Origin: a virus
Lineage: Duplodnaviria > Caudoviricetes
Strand: one strand, 5' to 3'
Length of the DNA: 64,000 nt
IMG/VR virus record: IMGVR_UViG_3300032254_000001
Span: 64,001-128,000 of that record
Shown here: positions 6,588 through 63,050 of the stretch, piece by piece
How the letters are laid out: each line of letters begins with the position of its first letter
Position numbering within the stretch: the stretch's first letter is position 1
Translations under genes and position numbers: made by a program
Notes under the pieces: model-generated
The model's database searches: none
Seen by the model: only the letters and a program-made list of their open reading frames with translations
Told to the model about the DNA's origin: nothing

Positions 6588-6881
6588 CTAAGTCATTGGT
6601 TTATCTCCTTTGTTAATCCAGTGTTTCAATTTTTGTGCGTCTAATTCGCTTTCGTCTTTAGCAACGATATAGCCGTGTTGTTCTAACATTGCTCTTGCTT
6701 CTTTGATCTTTTTCTGTATCATGTCGTCGCGTCGCATATCTTGTAATCGATCAGCCCAGTTTATAAACGTTGCAGGATCTAATTTAAAATTAGGATCAGT
6801 TCGTTCAAGGTATTCAATAAGATTTGCTACAAGCTTATCTTGTTCCTCTAAACGCTTTCTGATATCTTCTAATTCGTCCAT
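6588..6881 (-). CDS. Hypothetical helical protein ending in TAG
   Basis: 97-aa ORF from track. Confidence 0.7.
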   Translation of the reverse strand: MDELEDIRKRLEEQDKLVANLIEYLERTDPNFKLDPATFINWADRLQDMRRDDMIQKKIKEARAMLEQHGYIVAKDESELDAQKLKHWINKGDKPMT

Positions 6882-10320: not shown

Positions 10321-10635
10321 TCTACCTACCTACCTTTAATTAGTAGTATTTATGATTGATCGGGGTCTGTCTCGCCTTCGTATTCGTCGTACTGTTCGTA
10401 CTGTTCGTCAGCCCAATCAATTGGACTTGGTGTTGGATATACAAGCTGTGATGTTAAATGACCACGCTCTTCGGTTATTACTGCTTTTGGTTCTGGGACT
10501 TTCATTGACTCTGGGACAAAGCGCATTTCTCACCTTTAAGTGTTATGACTTATGATTAGGCTGTTGCCTAACAGGACCATCAATAATATATATCTAAGAA
10601 AACAATAATACAGCAAAAATGTACTCAAAGTCAAC

Positions 10636-13270
10636 CTATATTTTTTCTATATTCCAAGCGTGATATCCTAGGTTATTTCCCTTTGGTGTATCAATACGGA
10701 CATAATATCCAATGGGCTTACCGCTGCCAACTTCTGTCATATCCGTTACATCGTGCGGGTCAACCACAACACATTCGCCTAATTCTTTTTGGTGCTTAAC
10801 AATAACTTTATCGCCCTTGCTTAACATCTACTTTCTCCAAACGTTCATATTCTACTATTGAAAGAGTGTTGCGCACAAATTCGCGGAACTCCTCTGCGGT
10901 TATATTTTTATTGTCAACGTTTGCTTCTAACGTCCTCATAAAATGTTCTGCTGGTACTGGCCTGCTCATGATTTAATCCACCGTACTAACCTAATCATTC
11001 CGTACCCAACACAACCAGCACCGAGTACAGCTAACAAAAATACCGTAAATGCAATTGTAAGTTCAATCATAAAGCGACTCCATACATGCAATTTGACTTG
11101 TGAAAGTTTCACCACAGCGGTTACTACCATTTGGAAAGTATGCCCAACCACCCGGCACTTCTTTTATCTTGCCAACTACTGTGTTGTCCAGTTTGACTTT
11201 GATAATACTTTCATGCTCGAATTTTATATCACTCATTGTTTGTTTCCTTTAGTTTCTTAAAGACATAATCTTTAGGATCAGCTGTTGCATTAATTTCATT
11301 AAGCTTCCTCCAACATTCTAAATGTTACTTCTTCGTCTGTTATGATGTATCCGGAATCCAAAAGGATTTTGTTTCTTTCATCGTTAGTTAATTGTAACCA
11401 ACTCTCAACATGTGTCCAAGTACCAAAGCTGTCAGCTGGCGCACACGCTACAAGCCATTTCATCATCTCTACTATTGATCTCCAATCATTGGCAGGATGT
11501 GTGTTTCGTGCTGCACCAGCCATATCATTAGCAAAACATGCAGAATGGAAGCTGCCCGGAGGGAAGCCGCAGATAACATAATTGTATAACTCTTGCATCC
11601 ACTCATCATTCACAGGCCAGGTATAAAACGTTTTGAAAAAGCCTGATGCTTTGAGTCTGTCTGATTTACTAATATTACCCATTATGTTGTCCTGACAGCA
11701 TTGTCATCATCTTCATGTATTCTTGATTCGCTTTGCTGAATATCGGTACCTCAAGCAATGCGTCCTGAGATTCTGCGTCTTCGGCTATTATCGCTAGTAT
11801 TCTCTTTTTATACATTGTTGATAAAATTGGTATCAACAATGTATACATGAATGGTATAAAAATTAAGAACATTAAAAACAAGAACCATTCTTTAAAAGTC
11901 TTGTAATCCAATTCAAAAGCCGGAGCAACTACTGTATATGTCAATCCAAGCCACATCTCTTTAAACGCGAAAGAATATGTAAGACCTTCGATAATTTGTG
12001 GCTTTACATTATAAAACATCTTAGGTCCCATTATTTAGATCCTTGTAAATGTTCGATGAGTTTCTCTTTAAATTTCTGGAAACCATCTGCAAATTTATAA
12101 TCTTCGCTAAGTGCTGCACCAAGTCCGTACAGTATATCGTCAATTAGCATTTCATCTGGATACTTCTCGTACCCGTGTTGGTTGTTATACGTGCCAACAT
12201 AATCCTGCAAGCTTGCAACAACTTCTTCCATTGTTGGTAACGGTGATTGACCGTTAAGCCTGCGCCATGTATTTTCTTTTGCCCTGTTCATTATTCTGCA
12301 TCCGGAATATGTATACGTGCAACTGTAAACTCTTCTTGACAGCGAGCACATTCACCAACTACTCTAGCATGGACACGACCAATACCATCAGTAGCACCAA
12401 TCTTAACTTTAGCATATTCTTCGCCAGGTGAGTACAAACCCTTAGCGGCGTATACTGGTGGCTTATGGCCAAATACTTTACACAGTATGTTCATCACGTT
12501 CCTTTTTAAGTTTAGCTAAGTCTCTCTGCTCTTGCTCTTTAACCAACTTTATTGCATTCATAGTAGAACGAATTAATTTAGCTTTTGACTTATTGCCAGT
12601 TAATTCGTGATACGTTAATTGGTGCTCAAGCGTCATGTGCTTCTTCTCTCTGACGTGCAATGTAATGGAATGGACGTTCGAACCTGCCATCTGCATTACG
12701 GTAAACAGAAATGTACATATTCTGTCCAAAGCTATCTGTTGCATGATACGAAACAGTTTCACCATTTGGTATCTCACTGGATGTATTATCCCACGTACCA
12801 GTTAGACCTTCTGAAGCAAGTGCTTCGTCAAGTGCATCGAACCAATTTTGTTTAGAAACTATCATCGTCATCCTCGTCGTCTTCTATTAGTATTTCAGCT
12901 GAGCCTGTTTCAGTACAGAATTCAACATAAATGTTTTCATCGTCTGACTTCAGGAACTTGTTAATTAAACCACGCATAACATCACGTTGTTCGTCTGTTA
13001 TATGTTCTTCAAACAAATCGTTTGAATAAACTGCTTCGGGCTTTTTAAACGATGCAATAAATTTCATTGCGCCTCCGCTCTAGCTTTATGATCTAATAGA
13101 GCTTCGTTCTTTAATCTTTGCAGCACATTAGTTCGTCCTGCAATTGGTGCTCCGGTGCGGCTTAGTTTAACACCGTTTATAGAAAGTAGTCTTACTTCGT
13201 TGCCATCGCTAACGACATATTCTACTGTCTGTCGTCTGCTAGCCATTATAGTTTCAAATGTATTAAACAT
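10636..13270 (-). other. Run of small hypothetical early genes
   Basis: Abutting ORFs of 50-130 aa (e.g. 10636-10827, 11299-11682, 11675-12031, 12291-12497, 12626-12871, 12852-13067, 13064-13270). Confidence 0.7.
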
Positions 13271-23378: not shown

Positions 23379-24695
23379 TTATTGTGGTAAAGCAACTCGA
23401 GCAGTATAAACATACGTGCCATTGTTACTGTTTACAACATCAACCATGCCGTCACCTTTAAGGTCGATTATTGTAATGTACTGCGACAGGTCTCCTAGTG
23501 TAGCAACCCTTGTAAACACTTGGTTCACGTTAAGGTATACGCCAACATCAGTATTGCCTGTGTTATCGTTCTTAGCAACAATCATATCCTTAAAGCCATC
23601 GTTGTTAATATCTCGCACAATGAATGATGGATTGTAATTGTGTGCCATTACAACTGGGCTAGGTAGGCGTGTTGCTGTTTCGTCTACGAATTGACCAGTG
23701 GTGTCATAATCATTAATTAACACTTGAACAACACGGTTATCAAAGCCTGCGCTAGTGTTGCCAATAATTAGATCTTCACGACCATCGCCATTAACATCAG
23801 CTACATGAGCTTCTTCAATCTTGCCATCAAGTTGCGAAACTGGCATTGCTATTGTACCTGCGGTGAAGTTACCCTCACCGTCGTTTAGCTCTATGGTACT
23901 TACTGAGTCGCCGTTACCTATGAACAAGTCAGGTGATGTATCGCTGTCTGCTTTAACAAACTGAACCCACATTTCTGCCTGCGGCATAGATGTTTTAACT
24001 GTAAATGAACCCATGCTGTTGTTTTCAAATACGGTTGCACCTGCCCAAGCGGTATTAATAACTAAATCAATATCACCATCGTTATCAATGTCTGCGCTGT
24101 CAATACCGTGCGTATACCAATTACGGGTTAATCCCACACCACTAACATTGATCTCAGGCATGTTGGTATCCATTGCATCGTTGTTAAATGTACCGTATGG
24201 ATTCGAAAGTAATAGTACATCTTTCTCGTACCACGTTGCGCCTGTTGCTACGCCAATTTCAAGTCCGTGGTTACCAAAGTAAATATCATCAGCACCATCA
24301 CCATTAAAGTCTGCAACTTCAATATGACGAGCAAGTGCTATGGCAGGAACGGTAGCTAACATTGTGCTAGTTTTATCTTCTAGCTCACCTGCTGCACTTT
24401 GTAGGTATATCTTAATTGGAACACCTAACCAGGGCTGAACTTGATCATCGCCTGGATCACTGCCTGCAAATGTAACAACTAAATCTTCAAGCCCATCACC
24501 GTTGAAATCGCCTGTTGCTGAGTTTGTATATGATGATGTATCAAGTTGCGTTGCATTATTAAAGTATGTATCTGTTATTTCCGATGGTACTAGTGGCTCA
24601 ACTGGTGCTGTAACTGAAGCTGGACCGCCGCTTCCACCACCACATGCTGTTAGGATCGAACACGTTGCTGCCACTACTAGTATTGATTTAACCAT
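23379..24695 (-). CDS. FG-GAP/VCBS-repeat lipoprotein (beta-propeller)
   Basis: Lipobox LTAC; repeated DFNGDG/DIDNDGDIDL/DVNGDGREDL Ca-binding motifs. Confidence 0.85.
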   Translation of the reverse strand: MVKSILVVAATCSILTACGGGSGGPASVTAPVEPLVPSEITDTYFNNATQLDTSSYTNSATGDFNGDGLEDLVVTFAGSDPGDDQVQPWLGVPIKIYLQSAAGELEDKTSTMLATVPAIALARHIEVADFNGDGADDIYFGNHGLEIGVATGATWYEKDVLLLSNPYGTFNNDAMDTNMPEINVSGVGLTRNWYTHGIDSADIDNDGDIDLVINTAWAGATVFENNSMGSFTVKTSMPQAEMWVQFVKADSDTSPDLFIGNGDSVSTIELNDGEGNFTAGTIAMPVSQLDGKIEEAHVADVNGDGREDLIIGNTSAGFDNRVVQVLINDYDTTGQFVDETATRLPSPVVMAHNYNPSFIVRDINNDGFKDMIVAKNDNTGNTDVGVYLNVNQVFTRVATLGDLSQYITIIDLKGDGMVDVVNSNNGTYVYTARVALPQ

Positions 24696-24714: not shown

Positions 24715-24868
24715 ACTATGTACTAATTATATGGCTATTTGGGCAAAAGGTCAACCTTTTTGTGCATTATTTTTGCATTATTTTGGGTAATAAAATCAAT
24801 AAGTTAGCACCCCGTAGGGGCTATGTTTTTGATTTTATAAGGTTTTCAAACCCAAAATCAATGACTTA
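24715..24868 (-). promoter_or_regulatory. Sigma70-type early promoter with IHF boxes
   Basis: TTGACC-17-TATAAT inside AAAAGGT-TG-ACCTTTT; IHF-like AAAATCAATAAGTTA 24792-24806 and AAAATCAATGACTTA 24854-24868. Confidence 0.8.
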
Positions 24869-25264
24869 CAGTAGCTTCAAATCACCGGTGATTTTGTCAA
24901 TTTCTTCAGATACGCCAGGCCCTATTGCAACTGCTGTATAGGTAGGAACCCCGCCAAACTCAGTAAATCCAGCATCCTGTATCAAACTGCATGGCAAACC
25001 AGCGTCTATTGCTTCTTTGTGTACTGATCGCAACTTTTCTTCGCTGTCAACGGATACGCAGATTTTAGTAAAGCGGCCGGTTAGCCATTCCTTTATGTCT
25101 TCATTTAAGTAAATACTAAAATGTTCGCTATCAGACATCTCGCCGCGATTTAGCAGTACTGCCATAGATGCATGAGCACCTTGTGCAACCATCTTGCCTT
25201 TGCGCATGTTTAAATCTTTACGCAGGACAATAACTTGCTTAACTGCTTTAGGGTTCTTTGCCAT
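24866..25264 (-). CDS. pth2: Peptidyl-tRNA hydrolase type 2
   Basis: KQVIVLRKDLNMRKGKMVAQGAHAS...W...KICV...IQDAGFTE...T..AIGP...IDKITGDLKLL. Confidence 0.95.
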   Translation of the reverse strand: MAKNPKAVKQVIVLRKDLNMRKGKMVAQGAHASMAVLLNRGEMSDSEHFSIYLNEDIKEWLTGRFTKICVSVDSEEKLRSVHKEAIDAGLPCSLIQDAGFTEFGGVPTYTAVAIGPGVSEEIDKITGDLKLL

Positions 25265-26197: not shown

Positions 26198-26758
26198 TTA
26201 CACCTCAACCTTGCAATGCGACTTAGGTGTTTCCCAGAACTCAACAGCTACTACCTTAACATCCATTGCAGCCATCTTCTTCTGCGCTATGTCAAGTAAC
26301 CATGCGCTAAGGTTCTCAGAGGTTGGAACAAAGTCTACAAATACCATACCTTCGTACTTTTCAAGTACTGCTGGTGTTACTGCAAGTTCGAGATCTTCTA
26401 AGTTTGGTGTCCAGTATACTTCATCGTGGAATACACAAGCTGCTATATTAAGTTCACCGTCTTCGCAAATCTCAGGTACTTCGTGTGTAATTAGTGGATC
26501 GTTAATGTCCATGATGAACTTGTGATCAAGTACATCATCAATGAAGTTCTTCATCCAACCTAAGTGTTTAAAGTCTGTAACCATGCCACGCTCTAGCTCA
26601 TCGCCTTCTAGCATAACTTTAAGTTTACCCTGGTGACCATGTAAATGCCTACATGCTAAACATGTGCCTTCGCTACCTGTAAAGTCTGCATTTAGTTCCT
26701 GCGACCATACGCGATGACCGTAACACCAGTCAAAGCTTTTATCAATTGTCCACTTCAT
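26198..26758 (-). CDS. queD: 6-carboxy-5,6,7,8-tetrahydropterin synthase
   Basis: YGHRV...CRHLHGH...MVTDFK...LDH...PTSENL...ETPKS. Confidence 0.9.
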   Translation of the reverse strand: MKWTIDKSFDWCYGHRVWSQELNADFTGSEGTCLACRHLHGHQGKLKVMLEGDELERGMVTDFKHLGWMKNFIDDVLDHKFIMDINDPLITHEVPEICEDGELNIAACVFHDEVYWTPNLEDLELAVTPAVLEKYEGMVFVDFVPTSENLSAWLLDIAQKKMAAMDVKVVAVEFWETPKSHCKVEV

Positions 26759-27413
26759 TTATTTTCCTCTGTTTGTCTTTTTAGTAGTAAGAATGTTATC
26801 TGTTCAGAGTTCTCTAACATAATCTTACGTATATTCTTTTGAGTTAAACCTGTTTTACGATGTATGTCCATTACAGATAAGTCAGCACCAAGTCCGTTTA
26901 CTACGTTGCCTATACGCGCTGCTTCGCGGAGCCTCTTTCGCTCACGCATTAATCGTACATGCTTATCAGTTCTTCTACGTTTTCTCATAGCCATATTATA
27001 ACATCATTTATATCTTAGTGCAAGGAGTAATGCATCGTTTTCATTGTTCGTTCCTGCGAATACAGCATCCTTATCACCGAACTCATTGTGTTCAAATATC
27101 TTTGCGTTGTTGGTGTAGCTACCGCGCATCATTGTGATTACGGTGTGGTCACCTAACTCTCTGTGCGGATAGAAAAACTCTTCCCTAAACGCGGCTGGAA
27201 CTAACCATCCATGCATGCCGTGATGTTCTGAGTACACTTTCAAATGATCAAGCTCAATGATGTATTTGAATCCGTGTAGCATATCCTTAATAGTGCTAGC
27301 ACCTTGGCTTATGTTCTGTTTGTTCCATTCTTTTTCTACTTGTTGGTCTTGGATACTTGTGTTCGCAAATGAACATTGCACCCATTTATCTTTAATTAGA
27401 CCTAGTAGGTTCA

Positions 27414-28202
27414 TTAGTCTCTGTATCTCTTGTTGAGTTCACGTACTAATTCTAAAAGATGTAACGGTGTTCCACTGTTAGCTGCATACTTAACGAACTC
27501 GCTTGTATCCTTTGGTAAACAATGTCCACCAAAGCCGTACTCACCATCTGGGCCTGGTACTTGCGTATGTGAAAATCCTACTCTTTTATCTAACGCTAGT
27601 GCTTCAACCATGCCATCGTAGTTTATACCAATGGTAGTACCGTACAGTCGTTTAAGCTCGTTAAAGAACATTACCTTAGTAGCAAGGAATGAGTTTTCAG
27701 CGTACTTCAAGAAGCCTGCACTTTCTAAGTCTAAGAAACGTACATCGTTAACTGTCATTATTTGACTAAACACTTCATGCCACCAACGTCCACCTGTGCC
27801 ACCGTAAATAGCAAAGTCACATTCACGGAACTCTTTAGAAGGGTCAGCACTTATGCTACCTCTAAGGAACTCAGGACTAAATGTAACACGACTTAAGTTA
27901 CGAAAGCCTTGCAATGTTGATACTGACGTTGTAGACTTAATTAGTACCTGAGCGTTTGAATGGTGACGACCAATCTCAAACACGTAGTCTGTTACTAAGC
28001 TATCATCGCAGCGACCATTGTCGGCTTGCGGAGTTGGCACACAAATAATAAAACCGTCTACGCCTTTTATATTTTTAATGTCATCCAGTCCTTGATACAG
28101 TATGCCAGTGTTTGGGTCAACTATCTCAACCGTGTGCTTATCGCCAAGCACTGCGGCAATTGCTTTACCTACAAATCCGTTTCCTATTACTGCAAATTTC
28201 AT
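27414..28202 (-). CDS. UDP-glucose/GDP-mannose dehydrogenase family
   Basis: GNGFVG Rossmann, ICVPTP, KST, SPEFL, KYAENSFLA, GFGGHCLPKD. Confidence 0.9.
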   Translation of the reverse strand: MKFAVIGNGFVGKAIAAVLGDKHTVEIVDPNTGILYQGLDDIKNIKGVDGFIICVPTPQADNGRCDDSLVTDYVFEIGRHHSNAQVLIKSTTSVSTLQGFRNLSRVTFSPEFLRGSISADPSKEFRECDFAIYGGTGGRWWHEVFSQIMTVNDVRFLDLESAGFLKYAENSFLATKVMFFNELKRLYGTTIGINYDGMVEALALDKRVGFSHTQVPGPDGEYGFGGHCLPKDTSEFVKYAANSGTPLHLLELVRELNKRYRD

Positions 28203-28936
28203 GCTACTGTTTCTGCCTCTTCTTCTACTGCTTCGGGCTCTTTAACTTTGTTGTATTCAGTGATGCCCCATACAATTGCATATAGTATCCAAATGTAATG
28301 GAATGTATATTCTGTGCAACTGTAGTCCCAGAAGTCACACATATCAAACTTTAATTCTTTATTGTCTGATTCCCATCTAAAAGACATAGCTGCATCGTAA
28401 GCTCGCATCTGTCCATCATGTGAACAATCAATAACTTCTTCTTGCAATGCTTCCTTAAGCTCTTCTAGCATCTGCTTGTATGTTTGTGTGTCTTCCGGGT
28501 ACGCTTCTGTAACACCTTCTTCGTCTTCATCTTCGTACTGTTCGGCAAAATTCTTGTAATCGTTCCAAACATTTTCTTCAAACGTTTCTTGTGAAAACTC
28601 CTCGTAACCATTACCGTCACCGCGAGCACCGTCCCTATCAACTGACTGCAACTTCTCAGCCCAGTAACTAGGATTAATTACATGCTTCTTGTTAAAGTCG
28701 TTGTCGTTCATAATAAAGAACTCAAACATATCTGATACACGACTAAACACATAGGTGCCCATGTCTTGACAAATACACAAGTAACCTGGCCACGTGTGTA
28801 TGTCAAAGCGATAGCACTGCGAACCATTGTTTGTAAACTTTAGGTGTCGGTACAGCCCATCATCCTTTATGATTTCCATGGAGTGGTTTTCTGTATCACC
28901 TAAGAATCTTTCTTTAACTCGTTTTTGGTCTAACAT
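28199..28936 (-). CDS. Conserved phage hypothetical protein
   Basis: IIKDDGLYRHLKF...FDIHTWPGYL...DMFEFF...NPSYWAEKL. Confidence 0.65.
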   Translation of the reverse strand: MLDQKRVKERFLGDTENHSMEIIKDDGLYRHLKFTNNGSQCYRFDIHTWPGYLCICQDMGTYVFSRVSDMFEFFIMNDNDFNKKHVINPSYWAEKLQSVDRDGARGDGNGYEEFSQETFEENVWNDYKNFAEQYEDEDEEGVTEAYPEDTQTYKQMLEELKEALQEEVIDCSHDGQMRAYDAAMSFRWESDNKELKFDMCDFWDYSCTEYTFHYIWILYAIVWGITEYNKVKEPEAVEEEAETVA

Positions 28937-29266
28937 TATATTACCTCAAAATAATCTATCTTACATTCGTATACTACACCATCCCAGACCACACCCTTTG
29001 ACATTTCAATTGGTATAACTCCGTACAGCACTATGTTCTCTTCTGAGAAATCCAGTCTTTCAATTTTCTTACCAATTCTAAAGTCTACTTCGAAACCGTA
29101 TTTTAGTTTGTTCCAAACCTCGTCCTTGGGATTTTCGGTTGTGTAATAACAACCTATTTCGACATTACTCATAAACGATGGACCAGCTACATGGAAACTA
29201 TGCCCTTTAAGGCCCAGTGTTTGCGTTTGATTTATTGCAACTGGTTTCTTTAGTAATTTCATAATT

Positions 29267-29340
29267 TGGCGTCTGTGAAGGGGTTCGAACCCTTGTCCTG
29301 GGATTTAGAGTCCCGTGCTAAACCGCTCAGCTACACAGAC
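29267..29340 (-). tRNA. Amber-suppressor tRNA, anticodon CUA, with encoded CCA
   Basis: GTCTGTG/CACAGAC acceptor, D arm GCTG-AGCGGTT-TAGC, anticodon loop CT-CTA-AA (29306-29308), 4-nt variable loop, T arm AAGGG-TTCGAAC-CCCTT, G73-CCA. Confidence 0.9.
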
Positions 29341-29554
29341 AGTATAAGTAATATTAACACAATAATGAAGCCAATACAACCCCAACATATCTTGCAAGGT
29401 GGCCGTTTTCCAAGCCCCAGCATACATTTTCTAATAACGGTTTATTAAAGAATGCTATAAACTTTTTCAAGCCAATAACGCTATTACTAGAACTACCGCG
29501 GTAAGCACCACTACGCTTACATAAGTTGGTACAGTTTTGGTTAATATGCTCATT

Positions 29555-30211
29555 TCATTTCTCATTTGGTTCGTTAAGTTTTTGATACACTTCATAGCGG
29601 GTATGAAATGCCCGTTGTAACTCCAACACATCATTCCACGGAACTTTTGATTTTACCATTTCGTCCGTTTCCATCATTGTGTTAGTTGCAAGATACGCTT
29701 GCGACTCGTCTAAATATACATGTGAATGATAACCTTCTTTAGTCAGGTAACCAGTCACTGTATCTCTAAAGCTTTTGCTTAGATTGTTCACTAAGCCTGT
29801 CATTTCGGTTCTGTAGTCTTCGTCTAAGTAAAAGAATGCATGTGCAAATTCGTGATCGATTGTATTGTCCTGGCAGTGTACGCCAATAACATAAAACGGT
29901 TCGTCATTGTATATCCACTCAGATAACAAGTCTCGTAACCTTTTTTCTTTGTCTAGCAGTTCATGTGGACACTCTGCAAAAAACTCACGCACTACATCAC
30001 CTGGAACATTAAAGCCATTCCAGTCTGAAAAATATGTAAAGTTACCAAACGCGCTAGCATACCAATCCATGTATTCTTCAAGGGTTGGAAACTCGCCGCA
30101 GAACTTAGGTGACTCGTAATACTCTTGCAACCGCATAAATGTTGAAGCTAGCTCGTACTGGTTCTCACCTTTAAGGAATATAATATTCTCTGTGCTGCTT
30201 TGTATTTTCAT
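29555..30211 (-). CDS. Hypothetical protein (possible metallopeptidase-like HE motif)
   Basis: 218-aa ORF; TIDHEFAHAFFY (HExxH). Confidence 0.55.
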   Translation of the reverse strand: MKIQSSTENIIFLKGENQYELASTFMRLQEYYESPKFCGEFPTLEEYMDWYASAFGNFTYFSDWNGFNVPGDVVREFFAECPHELLDKEKRLRDLLSEWIYNDEPFYVIGVHCQDNTIDHEFAHAFFYLDEDYRTEMTGLVNNLSKSFRDTVTGYLTKEGYHSHVYLDESQAYLATNTMMETDEMVKSKVPWNDVLELQRAFHTRYEVYQKLNEPNEK

Positions 30212-30370
30212 TTAGGTACGTGCACCTTGCCGCAATCTTTACAATACATTTTAGCATAATCCCAGAAACCATCTAAGCCACTGTTGAGCTGTTCTTGCGT
30301 TGCTAGAATGCCTTCATCGGCTGCACAGGTCCAGTTGTGTAAACCTAGTACCTTACAATTAAAGAATACT

Positions 30371-30763
30371 TTAATCTTTTTTAGTTCCATCTTGCATCAA
30401 CTTTTCTATCATTTTGTATTGATCGTATGCATCTTTAAGAGCAGGATACATTTCGTGTTTTTCAAAGTCCGCTTGCAATATACACATACGTTCTTGCATA
30501 GTTGCAATAAAGTCGCCAACGTTGACGTCATTAACTATTAAGTCACCGGTGATTTCCATTGCTGGGTCACTATCATCGACGCTCTCGCGTATAGTGAATG
30601 CTTCATTTTCAGGTACACCCACTGTATTCGAAACCCAACTAGCAGTGATCTGCTTAGCCATGTTAGCTGCGAAATCTTTAGAAGTTATTCCTAAGTTAGT
30701 ACGGTCGTAATAACTATCTAAAGATCCGAACTCGATGTCGAGGTAATCGTCATCATCATTCAT
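30371..30763 (-). CDS. Hypothetical protein, PALxDAYxxY family
   Basis: C-terminal EMYPALKDAYDQYKMIEKL. Confidence 0.65.
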   Translation of the reverse strand: MNDDDDYLDIEFGSLDSYYDRTNLGITSKDFAANMAKQITASWVSNTVGVPENEAFTIRESVDDSDPAMEITGDLIVNDVNVGDFIATMQERMCILQADFEKHEMYPALKDAYDQYKMIEKLMQDGTKKD

Positions 30764-30772
30764 TTTAGTTCC

Positions 30773-31453
30773 TTAACATTTATTGTTATGGAAGATAGAC
30801 ATGAACTCCGATTTTGTTGCTGGATCGGATTTAAACACACCACCTAGCTTGCTAGTAACTGTGCTACTGCCTACATCTTCAACACCACGAGACTTAACGC
30901 AGAAATGTTGTGCGTCAATTATAACGCCTACATCGTCTGTGCCAAGTATGAAAGAAAGTGCGTGATAGACTTGCTCAGTAAGACGTTCTTGTATTTGTGG
31001 TCTCTTGGCAAAATATTCTACCACGCGATTAATTTTACTTAGGCCGATTACCTTATCTTTTGGAATGTAACCAACTGTAGCAAAGCCGTCGATAACAACA
31101 AAGTGATGTTCACAGTTTGATTGAACATTAACATTGCGCTCAACAACCATTTCGTCGTACTTCATTTTGTTTTCTACTGCTGTACACTTTGGAAATGCAT
31201 CTGGATCTAAACCCCAGAATACTTCATTAACGTACATCTTCGCTACACGGTTTGGAGTATCTTGGAGACTATCGTCTTCCATATCCAATCCTAGTGCTCG
31301 CATTACCTGGTACATGTGAGAGCTGATTGTTTCAATTTTCTCAGTACGAGATAACTTGTTTTCTTTCATAGGAGTTTGTACTCCTTTCTTTACTAAGTGT
31401 TCTTGAACTTTTCGACCCAGATCAGGGTCCGTTTTGGTTTTATTATATGACAT
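30773..31453 (-). CDS. folE: GTP cyclohydrolase I
   Basis: DTPNRVAKMY, SNCEHH, GLSKINRVV..FAKRPQIQERLT, HFCVKSRGV. Confidence 0.95.
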   Translation of the reverse strand: MSYNKTKTDPDLGRKVQEHLVKKGVQTPMKENKLSRTEKIETISSHMYQVMRALGLDMEDDSLQDTPNRVAKMYVNEVFWGLDPDAFPKCTAVENKMKYDEMVVERNVNVQSNCEHHFVVIDGFATVGYIPKDKVIGLSKINRVVEYFAKRPQIQERLTEQVYHALSFILGTDDVGVIIDAQHFCVKSRGVEDVGSSTVTSKLGGVFKSDPATKSEFMSIFHNNKC

Positions 31454-31476
31454 TTATTTTCCTTCCTTACACGGAT

Positions 31477-31506
31477 ATTATACTTGGATTGACAACGTAT
31501 TGTCAA
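31477..31506 (-). promoter_or_regulatory. Sigma70 promoter of folE with palindromic operator
   Basis: TTGACA-18-TATAAT; TTGACA-ACGTAT-TGTCAA inverted repeat 31489-31506. Confidence 0.65.
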
Positions 31507-31534
31507 CATGCTTTGTTACCTTTATGTAACAATA

Positions 31535-32467
31535 TTATTTATCTTTAAGTAGGTCTACCCAGTGTTTTATTGTTGCATCAAGCCCTTCGTCTAACGACGT
31601 AGTTGGTTTCCAGCCTGTATGTTCTGTGAGTAAATCGTGGTTACTGTTAAGCCAATATATTTCGCCGAAGCGTGGCTCTTTAGTTCCCCAGTTTACTTTA
31701 CCTTTCCAGTTAAGCTTCTTAGCAATCATGTCTACTAAGTCTGCTATTTGGGTAGGATGATTTGGTCCAATGGTATAGATATTGTTTTTAACTTTTTCTG
31801 GATTTTCGATTACAGTCTTCCAACAGTTAACCATATCGTCTACATAGATAAAGTTTCTGTACGGTGCACCATAACCCAGATTAATTTCTTTTGGGTTCTT
31901 AATCATCTGTGTGATGATCTGTTCAATAACGAAGAAGTCGTTATCTTTGCGTCCGTAACAGTTAGTCTGTCTAAGACTAGTGTACGGCATGTTATAAGCC
32001 CTACCTGCGTACTGCAAGTATTTCTCAGCACCAAGTTTTGCAACTGCATATGGTGCGTTAGGGTTAGCTTCGGTCTCCGGATCAAACGCAACAAAGTCAA
32101 CTGGTCTACCAAACTGTTCAACTTCGTCACTAATTGGCTGATGGCCATATACTTCCATAGTGCTAGCAAATATAAAGTTAACAAAATCATCACAATGCTT
32201 GTTAACACTCTCAATGAGATTCACAGTTCCTGTGTAGTTAATTTCACTAAATGTAATTTGCTCGTAAAAGCTTTTCTGTACTTCTGTACGTGCTGCAAGG
32301 TGCAATACCATGTTAGGATTAAATTCCTTAACCTCGGCCTCAACATCATCGTAATCTCTAAGATCACTTTTAAGTTCATGTATTACGAACTTATGACTTA
32401 GTGACGGTATGATATGAGAACCGAGAAATCCATCTGCTCCTGTTACTAGCAATCGGGTATTAAACAT
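31535..32467 (-). CDS. NAD-dependent nucleotide-sugar epimerase/dehydratase
   Basis: VTGADGFLG, HLAA, YAVAK (YxxxK), R.TNCYG, RNFIYVDD. Confidence 0.9.
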   Translation of the reverse strand: MFNTRLLVTGADGFLGSHIIPSLSHKFVIHELKSDLRDYDDVEAEVKEFNPNMVLHLAARTEVQKSFYEQITFSEINYTGTVNLIESVNKHCDDFVNFIFASTMEVYGHQPISDEVEQFGRPVDFVAFDPETEANPNAPYAVAKLGAEKYLQYAGRAYNMPYTSLRQTNCYGRKDNDFFVIEQIITQMIKNPKEINLGYGAPYRNFIYVDDMVNCWKTVIENPEKVKNNIYTIGPNHPTQIADLVDMIAKKLNWKGKVNWGTKEPRFGEIYWLNSNHDLLTEHTGWKPTTSLDEGLDATIKHWVDLLKDK

Positions 32468-33098
32468 TTATTGTTATCTCTCTAAGGTCAGGGTAGCTCT
32501 TGTACCCTTTATCACCAAGGTCGGTGATCTCGTTATTGGCTAATTTGTTTAAGCCAATAACGGCGTCTTCTGGGCGCATCATATAATGATACCCAACAAC
32601 GAATTCTTTCTGGTCTATCCATCGATCAAAACTTAAATCACGTCCATCGTATGATGCACGTTTAAGCCACTCGTATGCTTTCTTATCATTAGTAAGTATA
32701 GCACCACCGTGGCCAATTTCTAATGGCTTACCGTGTCCAAATGATAAACACACAATCTTCTTTTGATTAGGATTATCTAATTGGAACATATCTTTTTCAA
32801 AACGTCTAGCACTATCGTAAACAATAGAACCTTCAATCCTGTAATCTTTATCCCACTCTTCATCTGTCATCATGTACTCAATGCCAAGTTTCTTCAATGT
32901 CATTGGAACACTAAGGTAAGTGTGTGCTGGAATTGTTGCGTACAGCTTAGGCATTGTATAACGCAACCCAAGTTCAATTGCATGTGAGCAACTGTCGGTA
33001 GCAATAACACCACTGGCGCCTGTAAACTCAGCTAGCTCTTTTTCAAACTCTGATACTGCATCATATGGGTTACTGTAATCACTTATTTCTTTTTTCAT
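32460..33098 (-). CDS. DegT/DnrJ/EryC1/StrS-family aminotransferase-like, unusually short
   Basis: FEKELAEFTG...ATDSCSHAIEL...YDSA...LSFGHGKPL..G.GGAIL...GYHYMM. Confidence 0.75.
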   Translation of the reverse strand: MKKEISDYSNPYDAVSEFEKELAEFTGASGVIATDSCSHAIELGLRYTMPKLYATIPAHTYLSVPMTLKKLGIEYMMTDEEWDKDYRIEGSIVYDSARRFEKDMFQLDNPNQKKIVCLSFGHGKPLEIGHGGAILTNDKKAYEWLKRASYDGRDLSFDRWIDQKEFVVGYHYMMRPEDAVIGLNKLANNEITDLGDKGYKSYPDLREITINV

Positions 33099-34059
33099 AA
33101 TAATCCTTAGTTGACATAATAATGGTTTCTAAATCGCTAAATGCTAATTTCTGGCCTTGCTCTTCTTCAAACTTACTAGCGTCTGCTACTAGTGAATCTG
33201 GATCGCCTGCACGTCGTGGACGATAGCAAATATCAAACGGTGTAACGTACTTAAAGAATGCGTTGACAACTTCTTGGTTACTGTAGCCTGTGCTAGTACC
33301 AAGGTTGTATGTTTTTGATTTGCCACCACTGGATAGAACTTCACAGGCCCTAAGGTGTGCTAAGGCTAAGTCGCATACGTGTATGTAATCTCTTACACAC
33401 GTACCGTCTGGTGTATCGTAATCGTCGCCGTAAATAGAAAACACTTTGCCTTCCATTTGTGCTTCGAATATGCGCGGAATTAAGTGAGTGTCACCTGGCT
33501 CTGGACCGAGCTCATTATCCCAAACGTCCGCACCTGCTGCATTAAAGTATCTGAAACAAAAGTTTCGCATACCGTACGCTGCATCGTAATCACGCAGTAT
33601 ATGTTCAATCATCATCTTTGTATTGCCATATGGATTGACCGGCTTGGTGATCGATGATTCCTTAATAGGTAATTCCGTGGGATTGCCATATACTGCGGCA
33701 CTGCTACTGAATACAATGAATGGTTTATGTTTCCATTTCTTCATGTGGTCCAACATGCGAATAGTTCTGACTACATTGTTATTGTAGTATTCGCTTGGAT
33801 CTAAAACACTCGGACCAACGAGACTTGTTCCAGCACAATGCACAACTCCATCTACTCCGAACTCTTCCATCATATCAAGGATTTCATAGTCGTCGTAGTT
33901 TGACATGTAGAATTTTGTACCTTCTACTTTATTTTGTTCGACATAACGATTGTCGATTGTATAGACCTTTGCTCCTGCTGCTCGCAAAGACTTTGCAGTG
34001 TGGCTACCTACATAGCCACGACCACCTGTTACTAAAATTGTTACACCCTCTAATCTCAT
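33079..34059 (-). CDS. galE: UDP-glucose 4-epimerase
   Basis: VTGGRGYVGSH, FSSSAAVYG, PYGNTK, RYFNAAGAD, PDGTCVRDYIHVCDLA. Confidence 0.9.
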   Translation of the reverse strand: MRLEGVTILVTGGRGYVGSHTAKSLRAAGAKVYTIDNRYVEQNKVEGTKFYMSNYDDYEILDMMEEFGVDGVVHCAGTSLVGPSVLDPSEYYNNNVVRTIRMLDHMKKWKHKPFIVFSSSAAVYGNPTELPIKESSITKPVNPYGNTKMMIEHILRDYDAAYGMRNFCFRYFNAAGADVWDNELGPEPGDTHLIPRIFEAQMEGKVFSIYGDDYDTPDGTCVRDYIHVCDLALAHLRACEVLSSGGKSKTYNLGTSTGYSNQEVVNAFFKYVTPFDICYRPRRAGDPDSLVADASKFEEEQGQKLAFSDLETIIMSTKDYYEKRNK

Positions 34060-55522: not shown

Positions 55523-57850
55523 TCAATCTTTAGGCTTGAACTGATCAAGTACAATGTAACCGTCATCGCCTACTTTACCTGGCTCTGCAGGAACGATTGG
55601 ACTTGGCAGTGATGGCATCGGATGTGACTTGCCTTCCTGGTCAAGGAACACCACTTCATCGTTTACATAATCAGCTGTGATTGTGCAATTGCTTAACGCT
55701 TCAAACAAGATACGCTTACTAAGTGGTTTCTTAAATACTTCAGAAATCTCACGTTTAATAGGTCTTGCGCCAAGTGTTGCATCGTAGCCTGTATCCGCAA
55801 TATGGTTAATTGCTGCTTCGGTTACTTCGAGTGTAATGTTCTTAGACTTTAAGCTATCCTTAAGTTCGTTAACAAACTTAACAACAATCTTCTTAACGTT
55901 AATGTCTTCAAGCTTGTTGAACTTAGCAATACCATCAAGTCTGTTACGGAACTCAGGCTTGAAGAAGTCTTTAACTGCTTTGTCTTCTTCGCCGGTACGT
56001 TCTAATGGAGTACCAAAGCCGATGTTGTTGTTTTCGTTAGCTGATGCACCTAAGTTAGATGTTAATATAACAATGCAGTTTCGTAAGCTAACTGACTTAC
56101 CTGAACGACTAGTAATCTTACCTTCGTCAAGTACCTGTAGTAATACATTCATTACATCAGGGTGAGCCTTTTCAACTTCGTCTAACAATAGTACAGAGAA
56201 TGGGTGTTTGCTAACATCCGATATTAGCTTACCGCCACCGCCTGACTCTTCAAAGCCAACATAGCCTGGTGGTGCACCAATTAATGATGCTACTGTGTGC
56301 TTCTCCATGTACTCAGACATGTCATAACGTAACAGTTCCATATCTAAGTTTTCACTAATTAACTTAGCAAGTTCAGTTTTACCTGTACCTGTTGGGCCTA
56401 AGAATAAGAAGCTAGCAACCGGCTTGTTTTCTTCTGCAAGTCCACTGAAGTTAACATAGATTTTATCAAGTACTTCGTCAACTGCTGTTTCCTGGCCGTA
56501 CAGTTTGTCATCAATGTTATGTCTAAGTGACATAAGAGTCTTGCTCTTTTCATTGCTTAAACGTTCTGGCGGAACACCTGTTACTTTGCTTAACTGTAAG
56601 ATAACTTTTTCTTCAGTTACAATTGCATTCTCGTTATCGCTTGCACGTTCTTTAGCGCATGCCGCATCAAGTATGTCAATTGATTTGTCTGGATTGTGTC
56701 TGTCGTGGATGTAACGTATGCTTAGATCAACTGCTGTTTTAATAGCTTCTTTGTTGATTAGCACTTTGTGGAATTCTGATAAACGATCTGCAACCCCTGT
56801 TAAAATCTTAACAGTAGTTTCCTGATCCGGCTCATCAACTGTTAGTTTGTAGAACCTGCGCATTAACGCTTTATCTTTTTCAAAGGACTCGTAGTACTCG
56901 TCCCAAGTTGTGTTTGCAACAACCTTAATCTTACCACGTGTAATTACTGGCTTAAGCATGTTTGCAAAGTCTAACGAAGTTCCACTGCCGGCGCCTGCGC
57001 CTTTCATAGTGTGTGCTTCATCAATAAACAGGATGCCTTTACCTGAGGATTCAAGTGCCGATATAACTTTCTTGAACTTCTCTTCAAAGTCACCGCGGTA
57101 CTTACTACCAGCTAACATGTCGCTGATGTTTAGTTCCCATACTGTGTGGTCTTCTAAGAATTTAGGTACTAGGTTATTAATGATGTTTTGTGCAAGGCCT
57201 TCAACAATTGCTGTCTTACCAACACCGGGCTCACCTATCATTAATACGTTAGACTTGAACTTTTTAGCAAGTATTTCAATTGCATCTTTGATTTCTTCGT
57301 CACGTCCAATAAGTGGTTCTAAGTCACCAGCAAGTGCCTTAGCTGTAACGTTGGTGCAATGTTCTTCAAGTAGTTCTGCAGACTGTGCGTCTGTTAAGCC
57401 ACCTTTGTTATCGCTGTAATGATCATTCCAGTATTCAGCAAATGCTTCTTTATCATCAATGCCGTACTTTAAAATGAAGTAATGTGCATGACTATTTGTT
57501 TCACTTGAAATGCTTAGGAATAAATCGATGGTAGTAACAAAGCGTCTACCGCTGAATAAAACTTGTGTAACTGCGCGGTTGAACACACGCTCTAAGCTGT
57601 TTGTACGTCTTGGTACATCGCTCGATGCAGTTTTTGTGGTTGGTCCTGGTAACAATCCGTCAATATAATCTTCAATATCTTTGATCATATCATCTGCATT
57701 GACACCATAACCCTTGAGACATAAATAGAATGGTTCATAACTTACTAAGGCGACAAGCAAGTGTTCAAGGAGTACGTATTCGTGTCCTTTCTTTTTCGCT
57801 AGTGCAATCGCATAGTCGGTTATTTGTTCAATCTCTGGATTAATTTGCAT
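55523..57850 (-). CDS. clpA: ATP-dependent Clp protease ATP-binding subunit, ClpA-like
   Basis: Clp-N (HEYVLLEHLL), GEPGVGKT, LFIDEAH, GPTGTGKT, LLLDEVEKAH, GARPIKR. Confidence 0.95.
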   Translation of the reverse strand: MQINPEIEQITDYAIALAKKKGHEYVLLEHLLVALVSYEPFYLCLKGYGVNADDMIKDIEDYIDGLLPGPTTKTASSDVPRRTNSLERVFNRAVTQVLFSGRRFVTTIDLFLSISSETNSHAHYFILKYGIDDKEAFAEYWNDHYSDNKGGLTDAQSAELLEEHCTNVTAKALAGDLEPLIGRDEEIKDAIEILAKKFKSNVLMIGEPGVGKTAIVEGLAQNIINNLVPKFLEDHTVWELNISDMLAGSKYRGDFEEKFKKVISALESSGKGILFIDEAHTMKGAGAGSGTSLDFANMLKPVITRGKIKVVANTTWDEYYESFEKDKALMRRFYKLTVDEPDQETTVKILTGVADRLSEFHKVLINKEAIKTAVDLSIRYIHDRHNPDKSIDILDAACAKERASDNENAIVTEEKVILQLSKVTGVPPERLSNEKSKTLMSLRHNIDDKLYGQETAVDEVLDKIYVNFSGLAEENKPVASFLFLGPTGTGKTELAKLISENLDMELLRYDMSEYMEKHTVASLIGAPPGYVGFEESGGGGKLISDVSKHPFSVLLLDEVEKAHPDVMNVLLQVLDEGKITSRSGKSVSLRNCIVILTSNLGASANENNNIGFGTPLERTGEEDKAVKDFFKPEFRNRLDGIAKFNKLEDINVKKIVVKFVNELKDSLKSKNITLEVTEAAINHIADTGYDATLGARPIKREISEVFKKPLSKRILFEALSNCTITADYVNDEVVFLDQEGKSHPMPSLPSPIVPAEPGKVGDDGYIVLDQFKPKD

Positions 57851-60771: not shown

Positions 60772-62343
60772 CTATGAATAACTAACGCGGCCCTTGTTCT
60801 TATAACCCCAATAAATTATTAGTACAGTTATAAGCACAATGCCAACGAATGTTGGGTGCATGAGCAAGTTATTGCCTTCTTTCAATGCAAGGTCTATTTT
60901 GCCCTGCCCAACATGATAACCGAAAAGTTCTTTCAGTTTTATTAATGGATAGCCACCGACATTAAATAATTGAAATGTCTGTGTAGCTAGCCCTTCTATT
61001 TTGTATCCTAACATGAATCCAATCATCATTGCTGGTCTACTAAACTCAAATTTCTTCATAAACAGGCCTAAGGCCGTAAATATGAATAACAGTATAACAT
61101 TTTCTACTCCAAATGTCGAGTAGCTACTGTTGTAGGTTGCCCAAACTATTGCCAATAGTATAAAGGGAAAGTAGTATTTAAACGGTACGTAGGCAATGCG
61201 GGAAATATACTTGATCAAAAACAAACACAATACGCCTGTGAGTGCTGTTGCTGCTATAAATCCAAAGCTTAATGCAGTAAAGAACTGACCATCAGCTAGT
61301 ACGCTGTCGCTGTCTAGTGTAAGCTCAAAACCTATTGCACCAAACAATCCTACAATAACCGCAGCAAACGGAGCACCCGGAATACCAAATAATACAGTGG
61401 GTATCATACTCGTTGCTTTCTGTGCGTTGTTACTGCCTTCTGGTCCAATAACACCTTTAATGTTACCGTTGCCAAATTTCTCTTTTGGGTTAGCTGCCAC
61501 AGTTGCACCATATGACAACCAGTCACTGACACTACCACCTATGCCGGGTAGGAACCCAACTACACTTCCTATTATGCCTCCGCGCAACGACGACTTCCAT
61601 TCCTTAAACGATACTTTAATCCCGTCTATCACTTGTTGTCTATTATCTGCTGCATATTGTTTGCTAACGGTCGAAGCCCTGAACAGCATAAGGATCATCT
61701 CTGGCATTGCAAATAAGCCTGCCATTATGGGCACCATTGGTATGCCACGTCCCCCGTCACCTTCTAGAAATTCAAAACCTAATGTAAAGCGCGGTGCGGC
61801 TGTAATAGGATCTGTTCCTACTAAGCTAAGGAATATACCTCCACACAATGCAGCGAGTGAGAAGAACCATTTACCATTTGCAACAAAGGTAACAGTTACG
61901 AATGCCATTATACAAAATGCAAATAACTCTGCTTGTCCTACTCCACCTTGCGTTGCTGGAAGCAGTAAGAAGTCTTTGTAGAACGGTAGCAATAAAAATG
62001 TTAAGCTACCGAATATTAATCCATTAACTGTAGACGTTGTTATTGCTGCCGATAATGCATAGCTTGACTTGCCTTGCTGTGCTAACGGGAACCCGTCTAC
62101 CATTGTTGCTGCCGAACTGTTAGCACCTGGTATTCCGAGTAACACAGATGCAAATGTATCACCTGTTGTACTTGCTGCTACTACTGCCATTACGAATACA
62201 ACACCAAGGTATGGGTCTACAGCTTGCAACATCACTATAAAAGGAAACAATGCTACCAGACCAGTAGTCGCTCCAGCAGCTGGTATAACTCCTATTATTA
62301 ATCCGTATAATGTGCCAACGAATAAAGCTAATAAGTACATCAT
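60772..62343 (-). CDS. tctA: Tripartite tricarboxylate transporter permease TctA
   Basis: Polytopic; LLGIPGANSSAATMVDGFPLA..G; GFLPGIG; IGPEGSNNA; LFGIPG. Confidence 0.9.
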   Translation of the reverse strand: MMYLLALFVGTLYGLIIGVIPAAGATTGLVALFPFIVMLQAVDPYLGVVFVMAVVAASTTGDTFASVLLGIPGANSSAATMVDGFPLAQQGKSSYALSAAITTSTVNGLIFGSLTFLLLPFYKDFLLLPATQGGVGQAELFAFCIMAFVTVTFVANGKWFFSLAALCGGIFLSLVGTDPITAAPRFTLGFEFLEGDGGRGIPMVPIMAGLFAMPEMILMLFRASTVSKQYAADNRQQVIDGIKVSFKEWKSSLRGGIIGSVVGFLPGIGGSVSDWLSYGATVAANPKEKFGNGNIKGVIGPEGSNNAQKATSMIPTVLFGIPGAPFAAVIVGLFGAIGFELTLDSDSVLADGQFFTALSFGFIAATALTGVLCLFLIKYISRIAYVPFKYYFPFILLAIVWATYNSSYSTFGVENVILLFIFTALGLFMKKFEFSRPAMMIGFMLGYKIEGLATQTFQLFNVGGYPLIKLKELFGYHVGQGKIDLALKEGNNLLMHPTFVGIVLITVLIIYWGYKNKGRVSYS

Positions 62344-63050
62344 TGTAATTTCTCCTGCAACCAAATTGGGTGTTTGTCTAACCAGAATTTTACAAAATCT
62401 CTGACTTTATCGGTTGTTTTGTATCCCAGTGGTTCTAGCAATGCAGCTCCTTCTGTTCTAATTATGTCTTTAAGATCTACTGCTAAGTCAGCAGTAATAA
62501 GCTTATCGGGTACACCACACCACAGTCCATTGACATTCATTGAATTCATTGCATCGTCGATGTATGTCTCTGGATTAATGTCTAGTTCTTCTTGTATGTA
62601 CTCTGGCAATGTACTATAATCATCAAAGCCTGTAACATCAGGCCAGGACTTATCTTTGATATTATTATACATTATGTTGAAACATCTATCGGCATGTTCT
62701 TTAAGCCAATACGGTTTATTAAATACAAATGCATGTTTAAATTCTGCTAAGGCCATATGTGTGTCGAAGTCTGTGTAAATTAATATTTGGGGATTAGGGT
62801 TATTATCCCATTCGTCATCGGTGGGACTACATACGAAAAGTACTTTGTTATTTATGTTGGATTTCTCAGTAGCATCATTATCGGGCCAACACTCGGACGA
62901 CTTCCACCTATCTTTAATATCCCAGTGCTTGTCCATTGTAGTAGATTTGTCTTCCTCAAATACACATTCGTAATCTGAGCCTAATATTAGAACCCAGAGA
63001 GCAAAGAAGCCACCGCTTCCACCGTAATAGTTTAATGAAATTGTGCTCAT
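62340..63050 (-). CDS. Sulfotransferase/P-loop-like hypothetical protein
   Basis: YYGGSGGFFALW N-terminal loop. Confidence 0.4.
   Translation of the reverse strand: MSTISLNYYGGSGGFFALWVLILGSDYECVFEEDKSTTMDKHWDIKDRWKSSECWPDNDATEKSNINNKVLFVCSPTDDEWDNNPNPQILIYTDFDTHMALAEFKHAFVFNKPYWLKEHADRCFNIMYNNIKDKSWPDVTGFDDYSTLPEYIQEELDINPETYIDDAMNSMNVNGLWCGVPDKLITADLAVDLKDIIRTEGAALLEPLGYKTTDKVRDFVKFWLDKHPIWLQEKLQ

Follow-up and report, generated by a model that had tools for sequence, protein, structure and literature searches.

The stretch of DNA analysed here, hereafter the window, is 64,000 nt long and corresponds to bases 64001-128000 of a 344,483-bp IMG/VR virus record that comes from a microbial-mat metagenome, has a GC content of 40%, carries direct terminal repeats and is rated complete. 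Its family-B DNA polymerase is 41-47% identical to homologues from Sinorhizobium phage Phosso and Agrobacterium phage Atu_ph07, and those of the 350-380-kb E. coli jumbo phages and of Vibrio phage 2.275.O fall within the same 41-47% range; the genome is therefore that of a T4-related jumbo phage. It contains 39 (ARAGORN) to 43 (Rfam matches) tRNA genes, all but two of which lie in a single cluster at 33-49 kb. The tRNA gene with a CUA anticodon that is the subject of this work is solitary, at 93.3 kb of the genome and about 45-50 kb from the main cluster, on the minus strand like nearly all genes around it, and it sits within a block that comprises folE, queD, nucleotide-sugar enzymes and many genes of unknown family. 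Two related phage contigs, both collinear with the window, were found via the 218-aa upstream and a 245-aa downstream neighbour of the tRNA: G001, of 42.8 kb (loci L033 and L059), and G002, of 249.8 kb (locus L085). The features of the locus, in the direction of transcription, are listed below.

31477..31506, minus strand: sigma-70-type promoter TTGACA-18-TATAAT before folE, 2.1 kb upstream of the tRNA (12/12 match, consensus match only)
29555..30211, minus strand: conserved 218-aa ORF without a known family, upstream neighbour of the tRNA and query that found the relatives
29354..29470, minus strand: small upstream ORF of 38 aa with a TTG start; homologues of 67 aa (L033 3994-4197) and 70 aa (L085 3154-3366)
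29351..29379, minus strand: putative promoter close to the tRNA, TTGTAT-17-TAATAT with a TGn extension, its end 11 nt upstream of the tRNA 5' end (read by eye, consensus match only)
29267..29340, minus strand: tRNA gene with CUA anticodon, 74 nt, CCA encoded (ARAGORN, Rfam RF00005, covariation, syntenic orthologues in L033 and L085)
29306..29308, minus strand: anticodon CUA, TAG on the plus strand (sequence; ARAGORN; invariant in 3 of 3 syntenic orthologues)
28936..29262, minus strand: 108-aa ORF of unknown family, its ATG 4 nt after the tRNA CCA; syntenic neighbour in both relatives
24866-25264, minus strand: Pth2, a PTH2-family peptidyl-tRNA hydrolase (111.6 bits), 4 kb downstream of the tRNA and on the same strand

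In the product of the small gene upstream of the tRNA, NKPL..VC is the N-terminal motif and CK.(C/A)W, with a hydrophobic tail after it, the C-terminal one. Its homologues in L033 and L085 extend 13-14 nt into the tRNA gene and stop at the TGA of the D arm; the copy in the window (29331-29470) is split into two frames, of 38 aa and 30 aa, through a 1-nt length difference, and the second frame stops at a TAG made by tRNA positions 8-10. The 108-aa ORF gave no Pfam or PHROG match, and megablast of the 5-kb surroundings of the tRNA against cultured phages returned no match. Around the tRNA (26198-34059, minus strand), a GTP cyclohydrolase (folE), a QueD-like synthase, a UDP-glucose dehydrogenase, two nucleotide-sugar epimerases and an aminotransferase-like ORF form a block of 7-deazaguanine and sugar genes. 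The window also holds, all on the minus strand, cargo that is unusual for a phage: an FG-GAP repeat protein of 438 aa (23379-24695), a full ClpB/ClpA-like double-AAA+ chaperone of 775 aa (55523-57850) and a TctA-family tricarboxylate transporter subunit of 530 aa (60772-62364). A search with the transporter, made for a clue to the host, found no close bacterial relative. Outside the window, the tRNA cluster of the genome (G000:C1:39203-47040) contains many Glu, Thr, Lys, Ile, Met, Asn and Gln tRNAs of 86-92 nt with an extra arm, identities that are normally short-armed, and two ARAGORN calls there have irregular anticodon loops.

A single tRNA is called by ARAGORN in the 64-kb window (29267-29340, minus strand; cta anticodon at position 33), and the Rfam tRNA model matches 29270-29340 on the same strand with 61.9 bits (gathering score 29, E 5e-11). 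A sequence-only reading of this DNA had described a canonical 74-nt cloverleaf with a CUA anticodon and an encoded CCA and had called for a tRNA finder to be run; both programs agree with it. The structural details that it listed are also all correct by sequence, namely the acceptor end (G1:C72, U2:A71, C3:G70) of a 7-bp stem, the discriminator G73 before the encoded CCA, the 4-nt variable loop and the pair C11:G24. The D arm follows U8 A9 and has a 4-bp stem (G10-C25, C11-G24, U12-A23, G13-U22) with G18 and G19 in the loop and U at position 21. The 7-nt anticodon loop reads C32 U33 C34 U35 A36 A37 A38 in the sole possible register, on a stem that a C-A mismatch at 27:43 shortens to 4 bp, and the T loop is UUCGAAC. 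The invariants U8, G18G19, U33, a purine at 37, T-psi-C and the 7-bp acceptor stem are all present. The C-A mismatch, U21 and the strand are additions to the sequence-only reading. Folded as a single sequence the tRNA is no better than its shuffles (z = -1.27), which is common for tRNAs. Over this stretch the contig of the source assembly is identical, at 398x depth. No RNA run is listed among the sequencing runs that contain it. In a second microbial-mat DNA run the flanks are present, the anticodon is without independent cover, and one short contig turned out to be a different tRNA.

ARAGORN prints 'Pyl' for this gene, which is merely the program's name for any CUA anticodon, and the sequence-only reading had suggested likeness to both tRNA-Glu and tRNA-Pyl. 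That the gene encodes a tRNA-Pyl or a Glu-accepting suppressor now seems to us barely credible, even if G1:C72, U2:A71, C3:G70, G73 and the absent position 47, which match E. coli tRNA-Glu, and the 13-mer GGACUCUAAAUCC, also present in archaeal tRNA-Pyl, can be counted in its favour. The identity of E. coli tRNA-Glu lies in U11:A24, U13:G22 with A46, the lack of position 47, G1:C72, U2:A71 and a UUC anticodon with modified U34. In the window tRNA we found C11:G24, G13:U22 and CUA; the D-stem determinants are absent, and the agreement is limited to the acceptor end, A46 and the absent 47. tRNA-Pyl has a 1-nt linker after the acceptor stem, a small D loop without G18G19, a 6-bp anticodon stem, a 3-nt variable loop and no T-psi-C. 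This architecture, with its compact core, is excluded by the 2-nt linker U8 A9, canonical G18G19, an anticodon stem of 4-5 bp, a 4-nt variable loop and T-psi-C within UUCGAAC, and the phage is without a PF01409 synthetase. Moreover, the syntenic orthologues differ from one another at 2:71, at 3:70 and at the discriminator (G73 in the window and in L033, A73 in L085), and the nearest tRNAs are those for Lys and Asn, with Glu tRNAs lower. The supposed likenesses thus give way to a body of the Lys/Asn class, with a relative's orthologue carrying discriminator A.

In G001 and G002 a CUA tRNA lies at the equivalent site, between the two matching neighbour genes. These relatives are far from identical to the window phage (54% amino acid identity for the neighbour protein of G001; a mean of 60% over 120 orthologue pairs for G002), and in G002 a distance of about 50 kb again separates the solitary CUA tRNA from the tRNA cluster. 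L086, a relative further removed (43% identity), lacks a CUA tRNA at the corresponding site. Covariation was assessed on an alignment of nine tRNAs (seven CUA and two Lys), in which 96.3% of the stem cells are paired and 11 of the 21 pairs show changes on both sides; none of 500 shuffles reached the observed covariation values and no slid register came close. Every acceptor pair except G1:C72, together with three of the five T-stem pairs, has changed on both sides, while across the CUA family the anticodon is fixed and the D arm unchanged despite the stem changes. Such compensatory stem changes in syntenic CUA orthologues indicate that the gene is under selection and has been kept at one fixed site in this clade of microbial-mat jumbo phages.

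To trace the descent of the tRNA, genomes were scanned with a pattern in which the D arm and anticodon arm are fixed but any anticodon is allowed. Among 185,579 species genomes it retrieved only tRNA-Asn(GTT) and tRNA-Lys(CTT/TTT), and in IMG/VR 27 Lys, 6 Asn and 3 CUA tRNAs. The nearest tRNA is a viral Lys(CTT) in L063, which is almost identical over positions 8-46 apart from U36; the D arm, the anticodon stem-loop and the variable loop are all as in tRNA-Lys(CUU/UUU), and Glu tRNAs score below Lys tRNAs in similarity. There is no close paralogue in the phage's own tRNA cluster, and exact and near-exact anticodon-arm patterns run against IMG/VR returned nothing beyond the phage's own record. 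An unbiased blastn search of the tRNA against cultured phages gave four matches, the CUA tRNAs of DLP_3, Summit and Arash and a Lys(ctt) tRNA of Arthrobacter phage Atuin. The simplest origin is a tRNA-Lys(CUU) in which U36 was changed to A. This change creates the A36-A37-A38 loop, which is the MiaA motif of tRNAs for codons starting with U.

A tRNA with a Lys-type body might also serve without decoding, as a look-alike that acts as a decoy or inhibitor of a host factor that binds or cuts tRNA-Lys (anticodon nucleases of the PrrC or RloC type, or PARIS). Phage tRNAs that counter tRNA-targeting defences are known, as with T5 tRNA-Lys against PARIS, and the Lys-type body, the position apart from the cluster of decoding tRNAs and the other tRNA oddities of this genome, such as the long-arm tRNAs, would all suit such a role. 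However, no orthologue departs from an exact CUA anticodon, nor do the tRNAs of the unrelated phages DLP_3, Summit, Arash, L064 and L074, and this invariance points to selection on codon reading and not on shape alone. Moreover, a decoy would need neither an encoded CCA nor an A36-A37-A38 loop nor an acceptor stem kept intact by compensation. We therefore regard a decoy as quite unlikely.

As to the amino acid, C34 and U35 of the Lys identity positions are kept, position 36 is A, and the discriminator is G in the window and L033 and A in L085. By the E. coli identity rules A36 removes one anticodon determinant of LysRS, and the usual bacterial Lys discriminator is A73; the residue inserted is therefore uncertain. 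The G/G/A series of discriminators suits a synthetase that tolerates changes at position 73. Together with the variation at 2:71 and 3:70 it argues against the strict readers GluRS, GlnRS, AsnRS and PylRS and fits a class IIb enzyme reading mainly U35. In E. coli work it is typically LysRS or GlnRS that charges CUA tRNAs. Provided that the tRNA is charged at all, we estimate about an even chance for lysine, a clearly smaller one for glutamine and a somewhat smaller one again for any other residue. With regard to decoding, CUA tRNAs in which 27:43 is unpaired reportedly show increased UAG read-through, and Asn and Lys tRNAs often lack this pair (PMC13092985).

What the phage itself could offer such a tRNA was examined on a crude longest-ORF call of 503 genes, with TAG screens that covered ORFs of at least 50 aa and the TAGs of well-conserved genes. 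The stop codons of these genes are TAA in 328, TGA in 122 and TAG in 53. The sequence-only reading had noted that TAG ends at least 15 ORFs of the window, often within the Shine-Dalgarno sequence of the next gene; our count is 16, of which 12 lie on the main coding strand, and genome-wide 13 of the 53 TAG stops begin a TAGG Shine-Dalgarno-like motif of the next gene. With translation table 11, the genome is covered to 84% by ORFs of 100 aa or more and to 92% by the crude non-overlapping gene set, and coverage gains no more from TAG as a sense codon than from TGA as one. No 40-kb part of the genome is free of TAG stops; they end both early and structural genes, a gene of 4373 aa among them, and show no bias by region or in the base that follows. 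The median distance to the next in-frame stop is 10 codons after TAG and 8 after both TAA and TGA, so the extensions match those of the other stops and give neither a back-up-stop nor a read-through signature. Orthologue pairs with aligned C-termini were available for only 120 of the 503 genes; of the TAG stops of this genome that were compared, 3 of 9 were kept as TAG in G001 and 2 of 15 in G002, and TAG swaps to TAA or TGA as chance allows. The marks of genetic code 15, in-frame TAG in genes and a low coding density under table 11, were not found in the genome. Thus, the 344-kb genome uses the standard code and TAG is an ordinary, evolutionarily labile stop, in line with the earlier view that there is no wholesale recoding, which the 92% coverage and the lack of conserved in-frame TAGs uphold.

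A cognate synthetase or a release factor elsewhere in the genome, for which the sequence-only reading had proposed to look, did not emerge from domain searches: there was no match to PF00152, PF00749 or PF01409 (class IIb, Gln/Glu and Pyl types), and no PCRF domain that would mark a codon-specific release factor. Outside the window the genome encodes an RF-1-domain protein of the ArfB type (145 aa, G000:C1:54566-54817, minus strand), which is without the codon-reading PCRF domain. The PTH2 hydrolase, this ArfB-like protein and some 40 tRNAs make up a toolkit for ribosome rescue and tRNA recycling.

We searched for a phage gene that the tRNA would be needed to read. In the crude gene set and the comparison with G001 and G002, no TAG was found in frame inside a gene, near its start or as a conserved extension, and the in-frame TAGs in late genes for which the sequence-only reading had proposed to look did not appear either. 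Seven TAG stops are followed by at least 60 open codons, and all of them run into genes with their own starts. A 195-aa and a 527-aa ORF that lie in frame across a TAG were considered as a fusion and rejected, since homologues begin at the downstream ATG and the two are separate genes; a 127-aa ORF and the ClpB-like gene were dismissed in the same way, the downstream gene having its own Shine-Dalgarno sequence, ATG and Clp_N domain. The sequence after the TAG stops conserved in G001 and G002 shows no conservation at the protein level. One conserved stretch after a conserved TAG stop, that of the gene at 10636-10827, was considered as coding and turned out to be a promoter, TTGACT-17-TATTAT (about 10600-10635), the second conserved promoter of the window. 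Genome-wide, 15 candidates have a start codon, a TAG within 12 codons and then an open gene, and none of them is conserved across the TAG in G001 or G002. In these screens, no phage target for the CUA tRNA was found.

It is possible that these screens missed a target and that the tRNA is the key to one or a few phage genes with a deliberate in-frame UAG, a translational gate; we consider this unlikely. The screens covered only ORFs of at least 50 aa and required relatives for confirmation, with pairs of aligned C-termini for only 120 of the 503 genes, and a gene that might be suspected of being gated, Pth2, follows the tRNA at a distance of 4 kb in the same orientation. However, Pth2 starts with ATG GCA AAG here and with ATG AGT GAT in G001, without an early in-frame UAG in either, and among 79 related Pth2 loci none has ATG-x-TAG and only 2 have a CUA tRNA within 6 kb. 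The lack of conservation across the TAG in the 15 start-then-TAG candidates, the seven long-open TAG stops that run into genes with their own starts and the turnover of TAG stops between orthologues also speak against a gate. In L108 (IMGVR_UViG_3300012956_000001; 6800-6875 and 10866-11203), an unrelated 218-kb phage contig, a related Pth2 gene occurs together with a CUA tRNA; this CUA tRNA is differently built and lies 400 nt after Pth2, and the contig has a tmRNA gene within a 19-gene tRNA cluster.

The promoters near the tRNA bear on the time at which it might act. The 12/12 match before folE is also present in G001 (L033 1684-1713), a relative at 54-84% protein identity. A promoter scan of the region immediately upstream of the tRNA gave nothing at threshold, the TTGTAT-17-TGT-TAATAT site read by eye falling below it. 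By consensus match, both G001 and G002 have TTGCAA-18-TGnTATAnT with an extended -10, about 87-90 nt before their tRNAs, and the window keeps the TTGCAA and has, as read by eye, a TGT-TAATAT extended -10 upstream of its tRNA. These promoters are host-type by consensus and hence probably early, which does not fit a late timing switch. The earlier proposal that conditional read-through serves as such a switch thus finds little footing here: no gene with an in-frame TAG was found, TAG stops occur in structural genes too, and the nearby promoters are of the sigma-70, or early, type. The other half of that proposal, disruption of host termination, may or may not hold.

Taken together, we think it somewhat better than an even bet that the gene encodes a functional amber suppressor of tRNA-Lys descent, charged by the host and acting globally rather than on one phage gene. 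Host RNA polymerase would transcribe it from the sigma-70-type promoters, probably early, and it would mature as other tRNAs do. A host synthetase would charge it, and the charged tRNA would compete with release factor 1 at UAG, where the A36-A37-A38 loop and the unpaired 27:43 should favour decoding. The effect would be read-through of UAG in the mRNAs of the host and, to a tolerable extent, at the ends of about 10% of the phage genes. Since no phage gene was found to need the CUA tRNA, this effect would be global and partial, or aimed outside the phage genome. The roughly 10% of its own stops that are TAG, without extra tandem stops, would be awkward for an efficient suppressor, and imply either a low efficiency or extensions that are tolerated. 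Expression, charging, the inserted residue, read-through and purpose are what we infer for this tRNA from these data; candidate purposes are the perturbation of host or defence proteins, the buffering of nonsense mutations and the pre-recoding state of Borges et al.

Conversely, the tRNA might have little or no activity, either as a tolerated by-product of a one-base change in a Lys anticodon or as a pre-recoding passenger that awaits loss by drift. No target was found and TAG is still an ordinary stop, as expected in that case, and Borges et al. view the suppressor tRNAs of standard-code relatives as a possible precursor state. Nevertheless, relatives that share about 54-60% protein identity retain the gene at the same site, its CUA unaltered and its stems changed in a compensatory way, and an equivalent design recurs in unrelated cultured phages, which makes an inactive tRNA very unlikely in our opinion.

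A wider version of the amber-suppressor reading starts from the range of the look-alike CUA tRNAs, which includes cultured phages of Salmonella and Stenotrophomonas as well as this jumbo phage of a microbial mat. They might form a widespread and horizontally shared family of Lys-derived amber suppressors in standard-code phages, made early, inserting lysine and kept to act in trans on the host rather than to decode phage genes. There they would lengthen those host or defence proteins whose genes stop at UAG, or else overload ribosome rescue; the ArfB-like and Pth2 proteins of the phage would then relieve this overload. To our knowledge, lysine insertion has been proposed for no phage-borne UAG decoder. 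We hold this version as a whole to be rather unlikely, if worth stating.

The common explanation for suppressor tRNAs in phages is that they serve to read a recoded genome. The window phage and phages DLP3, DLP5, Summit and Arash carry a conserved CUA tRNA with nothing in the phage to read, and the role of such tRNAs in standard-code phages is therefore a live question. The Lys-type body and the family members in phages propagated on laboratory strains of Salmonella and Stenotrophomonas make the question of residue and role testable. If true, host-directed read-through would be a new route of host takeover; if instead a neutral pre-recoding state is true, it would represent the first step of the code-change path of Borges et al., in a non-gut lineage with 40% GC.

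CUA tRNAs in cultured phages have been noticed before. Sup-CTA tRNAs are listed for Stenotrophomonas phages DLP3 and DLP5 (PMC7326821), and the annotation of Summit has a 'suppressor tRNA'. The records used here are GenBank MT110073 and MZ326862 for the Stenotrophomonas phages DLP3, DLP5 and Summit, and OQ632216 for Salmonella phage Arash. In GenBank the CUA tRNA of DLP_3 (MT110073.1 49181-49254; L031 1496-1569) is mis-labelled as tRNA-Glu, although PMC7326821 has it as Sup-CTA, and that of Arash (OQ632216.1 49173-49247; L182 299-373), which ARAGORN reads as CUA, is mis-labelled as tRNA-Phe. The tRNAs of DLP3, DLP5, Summit and Arash, all from genomes annotated with the standard code, equal the window tRNA in the D arm, the anticodon arm, the variable loop and the CUA anticodon. 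That of DLP_3 is 86.7% identical to it over positions 6-65, and DLP_3 and Summit have the C27-A43 mismatch in common with it. In contrast, the acceptor stem differs in DLP_3, Summit and Arash, and the discriminator is U or A there and G in the window tRNA. DLP3, Summit and Arash also belong to phage families, and infect hosts, that are unrelated to the window phage. Moreover, the CUA tRNA of the cultured phages lies inside a small tRNA cluster, whereas that of the window phage stands alone, far from a 38-tRNA cluster.

The phages that use code 15 (crAss-like and Lak phages; PMC9523058) likewise have a phage CUA tRNA, a host presumed to use the standard code, TAG as the rarest stop and no cognate synthetase. 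They differ in that their late and lysis genes contain in-frame TAG codons translated as Gln, and some of them have RF2; neither was found in the window phage, and the body of their suppressor is of the Gln type whereas that of the window tRNA is of the Lys type. Suppressor tRNAs are also present in standard-code relatives of recoded phages (Borges et al., bioRxiv 10.1101/2021.08.26.457843). Laboratory amber suppressors made from tRNA-Lys and further E. coli tRNAs (series of Kleina, Normanly, Abelson and Miller, J Mol Biol 1990, cited in PMC13092985) are alike in being elongator tRNAs with the anticodon changed to CUA and in being charged by a host synthetase that reads U35; unlike these, the window tRNA is natural, phage-borne and evolutionarily conserved. 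To conclude, suppressor tRNAs in standard-code phages are already known (DLP3, DLP5, Summit; Borges et al.), and what this case adds is a body of the Lys type, conservation in synteny over a deep distance, a search for a phage target with an explicitly negative outcome and the link to cultured phages.
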